A stretch of 64,000 nucleotides of DNA from Candidatus Fermentibacterota bacterium (GTDB lineage: Bacteria > Fermentibacterota > Fermentibacteria > Fermentibacterales > JCC-6): assembly GCA_963845085.1 (NCBI GenBank), contig CAWJQI010000001.1, positions 288,001-352,000 of the forward strand, read 5' to 3'. Numbering within the stretch: position 1 is the stretch's first letter; every line of letters begins with the position of its first letter. Positions 1 through 31,667 of the stretch are shown piece after piece. A program made the translations under genes and the position numbers. The notes under the pieces were generated by a model. That model was not told the DNA's origin and did no database searches. It was given only the letters and a program-made list of their open reading frames with translations.

Positions 1-987
1 CTCCAGTGTCTCCACGAAGGCCTGAAGCCTGACCCTGGTGCGCTCCCTCTCGCCCGGGGAGTTGTCTCCGTTCAGAACGAGCACCGGGATCGAAAGGCAT
101 TCCTTGAAACGCTGCTTCTCGGTATGCCACAGGTCGCAGAAGGACAGGCTTTTAAGAACAAGCCCGTGGCACCCGCCAAGTGCCGTTGTCTCATTGATCC
201 ATCTGAAGGTGTCAGAGTTGGGGCGGTTCCGGATGCAGAGCGTGTCGGCGAACGAGGCCAGAGCAAGGTCTTCCGGTGAACCGCTCCCGGGATGCGTTGA
301 CGGAAGGCCGGAAAGCCCTGTGCAGCCCAGCGGAAGGTAACCCGCCCCAAGGCCCTGAAGGGTCGCGGGAACGGTGTCATCCCCAAGCGTGACAACGCTT
401 CCGGTCACGGCGACTCGAACCCCCGGAGAAAAACCCACGGTGCCGTCCGCCGGCAAAAGGGCGTGTTCCGTATGAAAGCCGAGGAAGAGCCTGTGAAGAT
501 CGAGCGGCGGTACGGACCAGGAAAGGGCGGCCTTACGAAGACGTTCGGCCGAGTCGATCCTTGCAAGCTCCCATGCAAGAGCGGCTGCGGGGTCGTAGCG
601 GGATGCCAGCCCGGCATCGATCAGCCGATCCACCAGGTGGGCGATCGATGACGCGAACCACGCCGCAGACTCACGGGAACGGGTGGCGGGAAGCTGGAAC
701 TGGAATACCGGCTTCCCGCTGATCCGCTCCAGCTCCTGGAACAGCCTCCTTGTCATGTCGCAGGTGTACATGCCGGCCCACGCATCAACCGAGCCGGCCG
801 CACCGAAGCCCGATACCGCCTCTCCGAGAATCGACTTCACGAAGGGGCACAGGTCGGGCCTTACAAGGGCTTCACCCGCCCTTTCGTCCTCTCCCCGCCA
901 GCCGGAGACGGCCCGCACCGGACGCATGCCGAGACCGCTTGCGACGGCCGGGGGAAATGCCCGGCAAAGGTAACCCAGGGAGTTTAT
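1..987 (-). CDS. 2-hydroxyacyl-CoA dehydratase family (HgdB/FldBC/double-cubane-type) subunit, runs off the left edge
   Basis: Absent from the ORF track because there is no stop in the window. Manual translation: NSLGYLCRAFPP...DLCPFVKS...MYTCDMTRR...RVAVTGS...KSLSFCDLWHTE...IPVLVL...RVRLQAFVETLE, the family Cys motifs and C-terminal signature. Start proposed at ATA 987 (see findings). Confidence 0.8.
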   Translation of the reverse strand, partial: MNSLGYLCRAFPPAVASGLGMRPVRAVSGWRGEDERAGEALVRPDLCPFVKSILGEAVSGFGAAGSVDAWAGMYTCDMTRRLFQELERISGKPVFQFQLPATRSRESAAWFASSIAHLVDRLIDAGLASRYDPAAALAWELARIDSAERLRKAALSWSVPPLDLHRLFLGFHTEHALLPADGTVGFSPGVRVAVTGSVVTLGDDTVPATLQGLGAGYLPLGCTGLSGLPSTHPGSGSPEDLALASFADTLCIRNRPNSDTFRWINETTALGGCHGLVLKSLSFCDLWHTEKQRFKECLSIPVLVLNGDNSPGERERTRVRLQAFVETLE

Positions 988-1790
988 ACGTCCTCCTTGA
1001 CCGCCACGAACCTGCCCCTTCCGAAGGCGCCCTCACGGGCCTTTTCGAGCATGAAGCCGAACTCCGAACCCAGGAAGTTGAACACATCGGTGTTCCAGCC
1101 GAGGATCTGCATGGCGTCGAAATGCCTCTGGCCGGCGAGCTGCCCGAGGTAGTTGCCGATGTGGTCGGCGAAGTCGGCCGTGAGGTCGGACGATTCAATG
1201 ACCCTGAACCCGTTCTTTCTGAGCAGACTGCTGTAACATTCCATGCAGAGCATGTCGGGGAATTTCATCGTTGTACAGATCCGCCGGGCCGATTCGTCGT
1301 CCATTCCGGCCGGACCAATGAGCCAGTCGGTGAACGCGATCGTGCCACCGGGCTTCAGCACCCTTGCGGCCTCTTCGATGAGCCTGCCCTTGTCAACCAC
1401 GTAGCACCAGGCGTCCTCGCCCCAGACTCCGTCGAAACGGCAGTCGGGGTAGGGTATGGCCGTGACGTCCCCCAGTTTGACCTCGGTGCTTTCCCCGAGG
1501 CCGGCCTCGGAAAGCCTCCTCTTCGATTCCTCGACCATGTGCGGGGTGGCGTCCACACCGTACGCCCGCACACCGTATGTTCTTGCAAGGAAATGCATGC
1601 CCGCACCCAGCGCCGAGCACAGGTCTACCACCTCGTCACCCGGCTTCCAGCCGGCGGCGTCGCCGAGGGCCTTCGAGCTGGCGTATCCACCGATGTGGAT
1701 CTGCTCGCCCATAATGAGTTCCCAAAGCCTTCCCTCGAAGCCGCTGTAAACCTGCTTCACCTCTTCAAGGGTCATTCCTGTCTTCTTCAT
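984..1790 (-). CDS. Class I SAM-dependent methyltransferase (sarcosine/sterol/tocopherol MT-like)
   Basis: Motif I variant VVDLCSALGAG, GVDAT, GDVTAIPYPDCRFDGVW, RVLKPGG. ATG 1790 follows AAGGAG. Confidence 0.85.
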   Translation of the reverse strand: MKKTGMTLEEVKQVYSGFEGRLWELIMGEQIHIGGYASSKALGDAAGWKPGDEVVDLCSALGAGMHFLARTYGVRAYGVDATPHMVEESKRRLSEAGLGESTEVKLGDVTAIPYPDCRFDGVWGEDAWCYVVDKGRLIEEAARVLKPGGTIAFTDWLIGPAGMDDESARRICTTMKFPDMLCMECYSSLLRKNGFRVIESSDLTADFADHIGNYLGQLAGQRHFDAMQILGWNTDVFNFLGSEFGFMLEKAREGAFGRGRFVAVKEDV

Positions 1791-1972
1791 TCCGCTCTCC
1801 TTCCACATTGCCGGGTTTCCGGCGTTTTGTGGAGAGCGGGAAACGGATCAGGGAGATTCGGCCCGCGCTCCACCTGACGAGTGGCTCCCACGGAGCCTGA
1901 GTGGGGCGCTTCAGGTACGGTTGACGATTGAACGTGGCATCTGCCGATTCCCTTCGTTTCTTATCGGGCTAT
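1791..1972 (-). ncRNA. Candidate cis-regulatory leader RNA (riboswitch-like translational switch)
   Basis: Long interrupted outer stem, internal hairpins, anti-SD helix CCGCUCUCC/GGAGAGCGG and a competing 11/12-bp helix. No known family recognised by eye. Confidence 0.55.
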
Positions 1973-1978
1973 TCATGA

Positions 1979-2007
1979 AACTTACCCCGGGGAAACTTCC
2001 GGGTCAA
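1979..2007 (-). promoter_or_regulatory. sigma70-type promoter of the methyltransferase operon
   Basis: TTGACC-17 nt-TAAGTT on the minus strand. Confidence 0.6.
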
Positions 2008-2093: not shown

Positions 2094-2933
2094 ATGCAGT
2101 TAATCATGATTGCACTTTGTCTTGTCGGGTTCTCGGATGACGGGAACCTGAACAGCCCGGCTATCAACGACTGGTCGCCGGTCGACGCAAGCATCTCGTT
2201 CACGGTCCTTGACACCTGGAACATCACCTGGGCCGACCAGGTCCTCGGCCTGGCCACCTGGGAAACCGGCTCTTCGGTTAACATCCTCTACAGCGAGAGC
2301 TCGGGCATGGAGATCGGAAGCCTCAACCCCGCCACCGGCGCAACAGCGGGTTCCGCGCCCAAGCCGGCGGCCGCCGGGATGGGGTTCGGCATCGCCTTCA
2401 ACGACAACCTCACCACCCCCATCTATCACATCAACAGCTGGCAGTACAGCAACCTCTGGTACACCTCCGACAACTTCTCCACCTGGCAGACCGTTGCCAA
2501 CCCCTGCGCCACCGGCGGCCGCGGCATGTCCTACGACGGCGAGAACTACTGGCAGAGCAACAGCACAAGCCTTGTCCGCTTCGTTCCCAACGTGGGCGCC
2601 CAGACGTTCACGAACGCAGCCCCCACACAGATCTCCGGTGTGGCAGTGGTGCCGGGTGACAACCCCTCCTACACCTACGTCCTGATTACCACCTACAACA
2701 CCGACACCTTCATCCTTTACTCCTTCGACGGCACGAACCTCACGCAGGTCGCCACCGGAACACAGCCCTCCGGGCTGGGCAACTCGGCCCGCTACGGGCT
2801 CACCTGGAGCTACGACCGCGAATCCCTCTTCTTCGGCTACCCGATCAGCGGCGGTTATGCCATCAGCGAACTCGAGTTCGATGTGGTCTCCCTCACCCGC
2901 GACACCTGGGCGGGCATCAAGAGCGCTTTCTAG
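2094..2933 (+). CDS. Exported beta-rich (propeller-like) protein with C-terminal TWxxIKxxF tail
   Basis: AGGAGG RBS, short hydrophobic N-terminus, repeats such as GRGMSYDGENYW and YGLTWSYD; ends VVSLTRDTWAGIKSAF. Confidence 0.8.
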   Translation: MQLIMIALCLVGFSDDGNLNSPAINDWSPVDASISFTVLDTWNITWADQVLGLATWETGSSVNILYSESSGMEIGSLNPATGATAGSAPKPAAAGMGFGIAFNDNLTTPIYHINSWQYSNLWYTSDNFSTWQTVANPCATGGRGMSYDGENYWQSNSTSLVRFVPNVGAQTFTNAAPTQISGVAVVPGDNPSYTYVLITTYNTDTFILYSFDGTNLTQVATGTQPSGLGNSARYGLTWSYDRESLFFGYPISGGYAISELEFDVVSLTRDTWAGIKSAF

Positions 2934-3755: not shown

Positions 3756-6005
3756 TCAGCGAACGACCACGCAGGAACGGGTGGCCGTGCCCTCGGGGGT
3801 CGAGAGCCTGTAGAAGTAGACCCCGCCGGGAACCTGTGTGCCCCTGGCATCGGTTCCGTCCCAGATGACGCTGTGGCTGCCCGCCGGAAGATCACCCTGC
3901 TGAAGGGTTCTCACAATCCTTCCGGACAGGTCGAACACCTGAAGGGAAACATGCCCGCCCGTGGTGGTGCCGAAGGCGATCGTGGTACCGGCTGCGATCG
4001 GGTTGGGGCTTGCCGTTGAAAGATGGAAGCCGGGAACGGTTGCTCCGGCTTCACCCTCGGTGCCGACGCCGGTGGGGACCATGACCTGGAGGGGGTAGAG
4101 GTTGTGGGCGGTCACGGTGAAGGTCACGTCATCCGAGCCGGGTGTTGTTGGGATGTTGAGCGTAATGAGACCCGAGGCGTCGGTGCGGCCGCTGGCGAGA
4201 ACAGTCGTGCCCTGGCAGAGCCCCACCATTGCGTTGCTCACGGGAGAGCCGCCGGCGGTGACGGTGACAGGGAATGCGCCGGTGCCGACCTCGGACGGGT
4301 GAGTTGCGCTGAGGTGGACCAGGGGGCCGGTGGTGGTGAAGATGTCATGCTCGGGCTCGCCCATGATCATGTGCATGTTGCTGTTGCTGGCGTTGCCCGT
4401 GTATTCGTAGGCCTTGATCTTGCCGTAGTCAAAAGCCTGCCCCATGTGGTACATGTCAAGCTGGAAGTAGCCCTTGAACTGGTAAAGCGCAAGGGAGTCG
4501 GTCGGGCCGACCGGGCTGTTCACCGTGGCGCCCATGAAGCCCACGGCACCCCTCGGGGTGGCGATGGAACCGCTCTTCAGCCAGGCCTCGCCGAAGCAGT
4601 CACTGCTTCCGCCGTCAGCGAACTGGCAGTTCACGCAGGCGATTGAGCTTACCCAGGGGAGCATCCTGCCGTTGGTCAGGGCGGCAACGTTGCTGTTGTT
4701 GAAGCCGGTGGTTCCCCAGCTGGTTCGGGAGCCGTGGCCGATGTAGCTGAACAGCGAAAGACCGCTGTTGATCTCGGCGGAAAGGAGGGCCACCGTGGGG
4801 TTGATGCCGCCGTAGGTGCCGGTGGGGCAGTACAGGGTGACGTCCATGTTGCCGTCGGTGGCCATGATCTGCATGTAGCGCCAGGACATGAGCGGATCCT
4901 GAAAGTCGCTCGAACCCACGCTTACCGCATACTGGAACCAGCTGGCGGCCGGCTCGTAGGGATCCGTCTCGTATGACCAGACCTTCCAGGAGACGTAGTT
5001 CAGTGTTGCGGTGTCGGCGCAGAGCCTTCCGACATGGATGCTGGGATCAACACCGGTGCCGATGACACCGTACTGGTTGTCGGAGGCGATGCTGCCGGCC
5101 CAGTAGGCGGGAACACCGGCCTCGTCACCGAGAAGCAGCACCCACTCGGGGGGGTTGCTCCAGGTGTTGAAGGCGTTCTCGATATACGTATTCACCGCGG
5201 CGGAAGTGTTGCCGATGTTTTCCATCAGGCCGATCTGGACATCGTAGCCCTTTTCCCGCTTCCACTGGATGAGGTCGGCGCAGAGGTCTACCGCAGACTG
5301 CGAACCTATGACCAGGTATGAGCCTTCAACGATCGCGTCGGTTTCCTGGAAGCCGAGGACCTCGCGGTAATAGGGAAGAAAACTGCGGGTGATGCCGGCA
5401 GGGACACGGAAGAGCTCGTTCTCGCCGGGTGTGCCGTCGCTCACGAGCCTGGCTGTGACGCTGGTGGTGACGATTGTCTGGCCGGTCACGGGGTTGACCT
5501 GCACCGGATTGAAGCAAACCCAGGCAACCCTGATGTCGCGCAGAATGCTTATGCTGTGAAGGGTGACAGGGCTGGCGGGGTAGAATTCACTTGTGCCGTA
5601 AACTTCAGCGTCAACCCTGAGGGGCTGCTCTGCACCGTTTCTCTCCTGGAAGGGCTGGAAGGGAAGAACGTTGTAGTTGCCCAGGGTGCTTGTCTCTGCG
5701 CTCACTATCTCGATGCTGATGCCGCCGGTAGCGGGGATCTGGACCATTTTTCTGATCACCGGCAGATCGGGGGTTCCGATCTCCGTGCCGTAACCGCCCT
5801 CGGGAACCCTGAACACCACACCCGAGCCATAGCCCTCGAGGCTGGCGTCGGTCGTGGTCAGGGCCTGCAGGTTGAAACGAACGAGCTGGCCGGAATCGGT
5901 GCCAAGGTACTCGGCGGCCTCAACGGGCTGGGGTGCGCGGTAAACAGTACCCCCCGATGCGAGAAACGCCAGCAGAAATACTGTAACGAGAAACAGTTTC
6001 ACCAC
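3756..6005 (-). CDS. Gingipain-like C25 cysteine peptidase: signal peptide, propeptide, catalytic domain, Ig-like domain, FlgD/T9SS-type CTD
   Basis: Propeptide GTPDLPVIRK; WKREKGY, LLLGD, SDNQY, VGRL; His in YIGHGS and Cys in SIACVN; CTD PNP...VFDLSGR...WDGTD...GVYFYRL. Confidence 0.9.
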   Translation of the reverse strand: MVKLFLVTVFLLAFLASGGTVYRAPQPVEAAEYLGTDSGQLVRFNLQALTTTDASLEGYGSGVVFRVPEGGYGTEIGTPDLPVIRKMVQIPATGGISIEIVSAETSTLGNYNVLPFQPFQERNGAEQPLRVDAEVYGTSEFYPASPVTLHSISILRDIRVAWVCFNPVQVNPVTGQTIVTTSVTARLVSDGTPGENELFRVPAGITRSFLPYYREVLGFQETDAIVEGSYLVIGSQSAVDLCADLIQWKREKGYDVQIGLMENIGNTSAAVNTYIENAFNTWSNPPEWVLLLGDEAGVPAYWAGSIASDNQYGVIGTGVDPSIHVGRLCADTATLNYVSWKVWSYETDPYEPAASWFQYAVSVGSSDFQDPLMSWRYMQIMATDGNMDVTLYCPTGTYGGINPTVALLSAEINSGLSLFSYIGHGSRTSWGTTGFNNSNVAALTNGRMLPWVSSIACVNCQFADGGSSDCFGEAWLKSGSIATPRGAVGFMGATVNSPVGPTDSLALYQFKGYFQLDMYHMGQAFDYGKIKAYEYTGNASNSNMHMIMGEPEHDIFTTTGPLVHLSATHPSEVGTGAFPVTVTAGGSPVSNAMVGLCQGTTVLASGRTDASGLITLNIPTTPGSDDVTFTVTAHNLYPLQVMVPTGVGTEGEAGATVPGFHLSTASPNPIAAGTTIAFGTTTGGHVSLQVFDLSGRIVRTLQQGDLPAGSHSVIWDGTDARGTQVPGGVYFYRLSTPEGTATRSCVVVR

Positions 6006-31591: not shown

Positions 31592-31667
31592 TGGAGCCGG
31601 CGAACGGAGTCGAACCGTTGACCTGCGCATTACGAGTGCGCTGCTCTGCCAACTGAGCTACGCCGGC
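31592..31667 (-). tRNA. tRNA-Thr(CGT)
   Basis: GCCGGCGTAGCTCAGTTGGCAGAGCAGCGCACT-CGT-AATGCGCAGGTCAACGGTTCGACTCCGTTCGCCGGCTCCA; 76 nt, CCA encoded. Confidence 0.97.

Follow-up and report, generated by a model that had tools for sequence, protein, structure and literature searches.

The methyltransferase operon at the start of the window (the whole stretch of 64,000 nucleotides analysed here, from the Candidatus Fermentibacterota genome G000) is preceded by a leader that we interpret as a selenocysteine-sensing translational attenuator. Read-through of a UGA codon in a short upstream open reading frame (uORF) would hide the ribosome-binding site (RBS) of the methyltransferase gene, so that the operon would be ON at low selenium. 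Based on the sequence and on folding models, we give this reading a probability of about 0.7, and a link of some kind between the leader and selenocysteine (Sec) decoding is highly probable. As read from the sequence, the leader carries a Shine-Dalgarno (SD) sequence, an ATG, nine codons and a UGA, followed by a covarying hairpin in SECIS register and by 20 stop-free codons that run over an anti-anti-SD segment, in a genome with selABCD. The features of the leader and operon, numbered from the first letter of the window unless another contig position is given, are as follows.

2002-2007, minus strand: putative -35 box TTGACC, called from sequence, with spacing kept in relatives
1979-1984, minus strand: putative -10 box TAAGTT, called from sequence and conservation, with an inferred start site at about 1972
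1949-1955, minus strand: Shine-Dalgarno sequence of the uORF, GAAGGGA, within the 5' strand of the outer stem of the first-pass annotation
1911-1940, minus strand: uORF MPRSIVNRT, nine codons with the ATG at 1940, followed by TGA (1913-1911), the predicted selenocysteine codon
1883-1897, minus strand: SECIS-like hairpin GGCUCC-GUG-GGAGCC, with the loop G at 1891, +20 after the UGA
1848-1910, minus strand: read-through part of the uORF, 20 codons, closed by a second TGA (1850-1848) that lies shortly upstream of the anti-SD
1862-1873, minus strand: predicted anti-anti-SD GUGGAGCGCGGG, within the read-through frame, called from pairing and a shuffle test
1829-1840, minus strand: anti-SD CCCGCUCUCCAC
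1810-1823, minus strand: small hairpin GCCGG/CCGGC capping the anti-SD:SD stem, its five pairs unchanged in six of six genus members
1792-1803, minus strand: Shine-Dalgarno region of the methyltransferase gene
984-1790, minus strand: class I SAM-dependent methyltransferase, 268 aa (Pfam Methyltransf_11/25/31)
1-927, minus strand: HGD-D-family protein (Pfam), after the methyltransferase in the operon
G000:C1:284699-287993, operon beyond the window: second HGD-D-like protein, double-cubane-cluster reductase and activase

No named family matched the methyltransferase above cut-off, the best being the NCBIfam DVU_1556 family (71.9 bits against a cut-off of 155). Its nearest solved structures are N-methyltransferases (E 1e-17 to 1e-18), and its closest relatives among the best 80 of 525 methyltransferase candidates are from Candidatus Fermentibacteraceae, at 85% identity. 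The reductase and activase were called with NF040772 (428 bits, cut-off 350) and TIGR00241 (208 bits, cut-off 125). RNA data consisted of one run, whose single 169-nt contig inside the methyltransferase gene is uninformative on expression. Elsewhere in the window are a divergent secreted protein without a Pfam match (2094-2933, plus strand), a gingipain-like C25 peptidase with a C-terminal sorting domain (3756-6005, minus strand) and a tRNA gene (31595-31667, minus strand), the last alone reaching the Rfam gathering threshold in a scan of the window.

The first-pass annotation had described the leader as a candidate orphan riboswitch with two alternative folds, and all the elements it named are indeed present at the stated positions on the minus strand. 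The elements TTGACC (2007-2002) and TAAGTT (1984-1979) are separated by 17 nt. The outer stem pairing 1960-1943 with 1862-1840, and the anti-SD pairing of CCGCUCUCC (1839-1831) with GGAGAGCGG (1800-1792), which a single nucleotide separates from the ATG at 1790, are both part of the minimum free energy (MFE) structure. The competing helix of fold B, in which 1873-1862 pairs at 11 of 12 positions with 1840-1829, also exists as proposed. Only one of the two helices said to be enclosed by the outer stem, ACCUGA/UCAGGU, occurs in the full-leader MFE structure; the GGCUCC/GGAGCC hairpin does not, and forms once the 5' part is blocked or absent from pairing.

A TTGAC-17-TAnnnT arrangement is found at the equivalent place in all six genus members and in 10 of 29 orthologues, and a strict sigma-70 consensus scan returned no site at the promoter. 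The 185-nt leader has a folding energy of -72.9 kcal/mol (z -2.72; 2 of 200 shuffles as good). On inspection of the six genus sequences, one pair of the fold B helix runs U-A, U-G and C-G. The minus strand of the window leader has no intrinsic terminator, the only terminator-like site being on the plus strand at 1809-1824.

The uORF and its UGA, which sits within the ACCUGA helix strand, were overlooked in that annotation. The hairpin that follows the UGA falls within all four published constraints on bacterial SECIS (bSECIS) elements in the consensus of PMC13188914. These are a stem-loop with an apical loop of 3-9 nt and a stem of 4-16 bp (here 3 nt and 6 bp), a G in the first two loop positions followed by G or U (here GUG), a UGA-to-loop distance of 16-37 nt (here 19 nt) and an MFE of at most -7.5 kcal/mol (here -10.6 kcal/mol). 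A further criterion of the same source is that the genome encodes Sec machinery. For comparison, a UxxC protein of the same genome has a loop, GGTC, at the same distance from its UGA as the leader hairpin, and in the selD of this genome the loop lies 3 nt farther from the UGA.

Of 70 phylum genomes searched, 37 contained the methyltransferase, and 30 loci were returned, the window's own included; exclusion of L023, which came without upstream DNA, gave 29 orthologous leaders. An SD-like purine run, a start codon and a TGA-ended uORF of 9-13 codons are present in 27 of the 29, and the uORF peptide is conserved on neither side of the UGA. Across the 29 sequences, eight of the nine hairpin pairs show changes on both sides and 89.3% of hairpin cells are paired, compared with 23-55% in slid registers and 69.9 ± 2.0 after shuffling, where none of 500 shuffles reached the observed value, although the orthologues are related and both counts and covariation thus overstate independence. 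The loop G is at +20 after the UGA in 24 of 27 leaders and shifted by 2 nt in the remaining three, and 26 of the 27 hairpins pass the energy limit of -7.5 kcal/mol. The read-through frame is stop-free for 15 codons in every one of the 27 leaders (22 and 22 for the other two frames), and its length across the phylum ranges from 16 to 32 codons. None of the 27 has a U at +4 of the UGA, the genome-wide figure for long-ORF TGA stops being 121 of 504. In L011 and L012, whose contigs stop 406 nt past the gene, the in-frame UGA is lost or out of frame, yet selA and selB are kept in their genomes. At L152 the hairpin loop contains an additional in-frame TGA and the operon looks reduced; here too the genome retains selA and selB, and all three leaders seem to have decayed.

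These patterns bear on the ligand that had been proposed for the leader, a methyl-cycle, corrinoid or amino-acid compound sensed by an orphan riboswitch. The stability of the leader and its alternative anti-SD helices are compatible with a metabolite-binding element, as is a pairing of the uORF SD with a downstream segment that can be seen by eye in several clades and outperforms shuffled sequences in 9 of the 29 (p 0.09 for the window leader). The first-pass failure to match a known class is borne out by Rfam, which gave three chance matches (E 3.5-9.3), all outside the leader, and no match on the leaders in a scan of 12 related loci. Comparison of the orthologous leaders did reveal conservation and hairpin covariation, but the conserved features are the SD, start, UGA, hairpin and open frame, which belong to a translated unit, and the orthologues share no aptamer-like core. 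In the UGA-hairpin alignment of the 29 orthologues only five columns besides the A of the UGA are at least 90% conserved, all in the UGA and hairpin loop region, and leader length and 3' structure vary among clades. A metabolite-binding riboswitch is on these grounds extremely unlikely, and the input is likely to be decoding of the UGA by the ribosome with Sec-tRNA and SelB.

The same arrangement occurs beyond the phylum. From the best 80 of 525 methyltransferase candidates in the genome collection we set aside 24 from the same phylum, and 51 of the remaining 56 loci had 350 nt upstream in which a uORF and hairpin could be sought. An ATG-initiated uORF ending in TGA and followed by the hairpin was found at 21 of these 51 loci, which include members of Caldisericia, Aminicenantes, Calditrichaeota, LCP-89, KSB1, Brocadiia, Victivallales and Verrucomicrobiota. 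The hairpin followed 22 of 54 uORFs that stop at TGA, 0 of 29 at TAA and 0 of 18 at TAG; the antisense-strand control gave 0 of 79, and base shuffling a mean of 0.84 loci (maximum 4). For the frame test 18 of the 21 loci were kept, L056, L060 and L117 being dropped for long or distant uORFs, and the read-through frame was stop-free in all 18 (11 and 9 for the other frames). At four loci (L073, L086, L093 and L101) the uORF has only 4-5 codons, one of which, two positions ahead of the UGA, encodes Cys; these uORFs could sense cysteine and selenocysteine jointly.

A different explanation keeps the uORF and either treats the UGA as a plain RF2 stop behind a metabolite-dependent arrest peptide of the TnaC or SpeFL type, or takes the uORF to encode a functional 30-residue selenopeptide. 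The uORF is short and mostly of fixed length, as such a peptide might be, and the lack of U at +4 in all 27 phylum leaders fits slow termination. An arrest peptide accounts for neither the SECIS register nor the restriction of the hairpin to TGA-ended uORFs, and the peptide sequence drifts on both sides of the UGA. We consider this explanation very unlikely.

The genome of the window encodes selA, selB, selC (tRNA-Sec) and a TGA-containing selD, with selA, selB, selD and tRNA-Sec all above cut-off. Genes for the Sec machinery are also common where the methyltransferase occurs: selA was found in 45 and selB in 40 of 50 other genomes with the gene, and in 19 and 18, respectively, of the 20 leader-positive genomes tested, against a bacterial background figure given as 21.5% in PMC10418091. 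The leader-positive genome G082, for which completeness is not given, shows neither selA nor selB. All 46 good genomes of the phylum carry selA and selB and therefore provide no natural negative control for a correlation between leader and Sec machinery. Among the best 80 of 525 candidates, selA, selB or selD lies within 6 kb of the methyltransferase at 14 loci. In Lentisphaerae and Planctomycetota loci (L072:4349-6004 and related loci) a SelD fused to a C-terminal AhpD/carboxymuconolactone-decarboxylase-like domain is encoded directly upstream of the methyltransferase.

It is conceivable that the hairpin serves simply as a binding site for SelB-GTP-Sec-tRNA, which would repress the mRNA directly or refold it with no read-through. 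The SECIS-type loop would suit such a role. In work ascribed to Thanbichler and Bock in 2002, the E. coli selAB 5' UTR is said to contain a SECIS-like element through which the SelB complex represses directly, with no uORF or read-through. The hairpin of the present leader, however, is about 90 nt from the RBS, and binding alone would require neither a conserved uORF SD and start, nor an in-frame UGA, a fixed distance from UGA to loop or an open frame beyond it. We consider such direct control by SelB, with no read-through, improbable.

Sequence searches with blastn and nhmmer detected no second copy of the leader in the genome of the window. A scan of that genome for the uORF-hairpin pattern returned 10 of 2238 TGA, 4 of 525 TAA and 4 of 840 TAG candidates, a TGA rate no higher than those of the other stops, indicating that the pattern needs context. 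Two further Sec-type leaders were recognised in this genome. The first, MTAVRRT-TGA at G000:C5:268172 (minus strand, locus L159), has an anti-SD layout like that of the window leader and precedes an unassigned exported protein and then a sodium:solute symporter. The other, MLKHLQPAS-TGA at G000:C5:523346 (minus strand), has its hairpin loop at +20 and precedes a Cys-type (CxxC) protein that shares 30% identity with the UxxC protein of the same genome and weakly matches, below cut-off, NF045500, an Omp28-related selenoprotein. Leaders of this latter type are conserved in several genus members (loci L158 and L161-L166) and passed the filter in four of eight parsed loci, own included, with one more recognised by eye and 2 of 10 loci left unparsed. 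On the same contig, exported proteins at C5:499622 and C5:711884 (minus strand; loci L157 and L160) have an in-frame TGA in UxxC or CxxU motifs together with SECIS-like hairpins, and judging from sequence are likely to be unannotated selenoproteins.

A covariance model, R1, trained on 22 leaders, found 34 places in 30 of 70 phylum genomes. It recovered four held-out methyltransferase leaders, gave one clear false match (L150), and missed all five genomes of genus g11 as well as the other two leaders and the selenoprotein SECIS elements of the genome of the window; owing to the false match and the misses it is not a general detector. R1 leaders precede NMT1-like ABC substrate-binding proteins at L148, L151 and L153 (the family search covered L151 only), which are candidate importers of selenium compounds; the L153 uORF has no obvious ATG. 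At L149 (G001:C5:47739) a Sec-type leader stands directly before a stand-alone gene that by eye is double-cubane/HgdB-like.

How the leader may work was addressed by folding simulations. Blocking all RNA 5' of the ribosome, the cost of opening the methyltransferase SD in the window leader was 11.4 kcal/mol in the free state, 5.3 kcal/mol with a ribosome stalled at the UGA and 12.4-12.5 kcal/mol in late read-through, and five genus relatives gave the same order. The upstream-blocked '25 of 29' contrast carries a bias, since competitors are invariably lost when a longer upstream stretch is blocked. When the anti-anti-SD segment of the window leader was shuffled, the stalled cost averaged 11.9 kcal/mol instead of 5.3 kcal/mol, with 0 of 25 shuffles as low, and shuffling likewise abolished the SD-freeing gain in both sister leaders. 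This segment-specific effect was detected in 13 of 29 leaders and is absent in most of genus g2 and family f2. In the plain-footprint simulation the stalled state was below late read-through in 9 of 27 leaders and the reverse held in 6. For the window leader and its close relatives, folding thus supports the first-pass proposal that anti-SD and anti-anti-SD segments control the methyltransferase RBS, probably as an OFF switch.

In each of the five simulated states of the full-length RNA the anti-SD:SD helix had a probability of 0.84-0.96, with fold B 6.8-8.5 kcal/mol higher. The SD is thus closed in every full-length state; folding predicts no switch at equilibrium, which means that switching has to be kinetic. 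In nascent RNA that does not yet include the SD, the probability of fold B was 0.91 when naked, 1.00 when stalled and 0.00-0.03 under a read-through ribosome.

From these simulations we infer a mechanism that is ON at low selenium. A ribosome would translate the uORF and, given enough Sec-tRNA, SelB on the hairpin would allow it to decode the UGA and traverse 1910-1850. This passage would prevent or melt the helix between 1873-1862 and 1840-1829, leaving the anti-SD to capture the SD as it emerges (OFF). With little Sec-tRNA the ribosome would pause or terminate at the UGA, and fold B would form on nascent RNA in which the SD has yet to be made, keeping the SD open long enough for initiation (ON in selenium shortage). 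A long stall would be unnecessary, as RF2 termination would leave fold B too.

A Sec-linked switch could also run with the opposite or a transcriptional logic, in which read-through would either maintain the coupling of ribosome and polymerase or expose the RBS, and the operon would be ON with plentiful selenium, for example to methylate and detoxify it. Treponema primitia fdhF, with its intragenic selenium-dependent translational coupling, works in this direction (PMC3892789), SAM methyltransferases are able to detoxify selenium, and several f2 and g2 leaders are more closed when stalled than when free. Against this, 36-137 nt separate the read-through stop from the gene start, so that the two are not translationally coupled, and the window leader has no minus-strand terminator. 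In the window and its genus the anti-anti-SD is covered by the read-through ribosome, and the sister leaders precede transporters and a Cys-type paralog, in keeping with a starvation response. We therefore regard the opposite logic as unlikely.

If the attenuator is ON in selenium shortage, the methyltransferase and double-cubane operon would likely serve selenium scavenging, perhaps from methylated or organic selenium; this is the weakest step of the proposal. Selenium starvation induces methyltransferase systems in two published cases, Methanococcus sdmABC (PMC11097638) and the type 1 mlp clusters (PMC10418091); like the present operon, they link methyltransferases to selenium supply, with neighbouring genes for dicubane-cluster proteins and sel genes. 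The mlp clusters are defined by the UroD-family methyltransferases Mlp2 and Mlp3 with a corrinoid protein (PMC10418091), and the window operon is not such a cluster, since neither a UroD-family nor a corrinoid gene is among its five genes in G000. It differs from both systems in having a class I SAM methyltransferase. The available portions of PMC11097638 and PMC10418091 yielded no leader mechanism for either system, and the latter terms the link between double-cubane reductases and selenium provisional. PMC8124441 and PMC3834832 provided background only.

Corrinoid genes adjoin the methyltransferase at 9, and MtaA-like genes at 10, of the best 80 of 525 loci. At L061, L069, L070, L073, L086 and L114 the methyltransferase is the first gene of an extended operon that also encodes a corrinoid protein, MtaA/CmuA-like methyltransferases and an EamA transporter and that resembles methyl-selenide utilisation clusters.

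How bacteria sense their selenium supply is poorly known. If the present reading is correct, stop-codon recoding joins the known inputs of attenuation, double-cubane reductases gain a physiological trigger, and the combination of uORF, UGA and SECIS hairpin offers a simple signature for selenium-regulated genes in uncultured anaerobes. In a broader proposal, which we rate somewhat below even odds, Sec-UGA leader attenuators in several anaerobic phyla might together make up a multi-locus regulon for selenium starvation that operates without a protein regulator, the present operon carrying out ATP-driven release of selenium from organic or methylated compounds. A literature search that covered few subscription papers found no published Sec leader peptide or attenuator, and nothing on Fermentibacter together with selenocysteine.

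Known systems share individual elements with the leader. Like the E. coli selAB leader, as that is reportedly organised, it has a SECIS-like leader hairpin that would report Sec-tRNA status. It resembles the E. coli fdhF SECIS in having an in-frame UGA, a loop G at +20 followed by a U at +21, a 3-nt loop and a 6-bp stem, and this shared register makes a reporter test in E. coli feasible. In contrast to the SECIS elements of selenoprotein genes, the hairpin serves an unconserved leader peptide in front of genes that do not encode selenoproteins, which makes a regulatory role likely. In T. primitia fdhF, UGA decoding efficiency likewise feeds back on expression, but there the UGA is inside the selenoprotein ORF and the control is transcriptional and ON with selenium (PMC3892789), whereas here a dedicated leader is predicted to be ON without it.

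The trp and his leader-peptide attenuators also have four segments forming mutually exclusive helices that are set by a ribosome on a leader peptide (PMC3892789); the present leader differs in acting by occluding the RBS, its minus strand being free of terminators, and in having selenocysteine decoding as its signal. The mycobacterial polycysteine attenuators, in which the position of the ribosome on a short ORF senses an amino acid and controls an RBS-sequestering structure (Canestrari et al., 10.1101/834739), have a run of sense codons as sensor, in place of which the present leader has a single recoded UGA with a SECIS-type hairpin and SelB, in a uORF with its own SD. The stalled ribosome is predicted here to let the anti-anti-SD act and not, as in the polycysteine case, to cover the sequestering strand. 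The polycysteine attenuators are like the Sec leaders in placing several loci under one signal (10.1101/834739).
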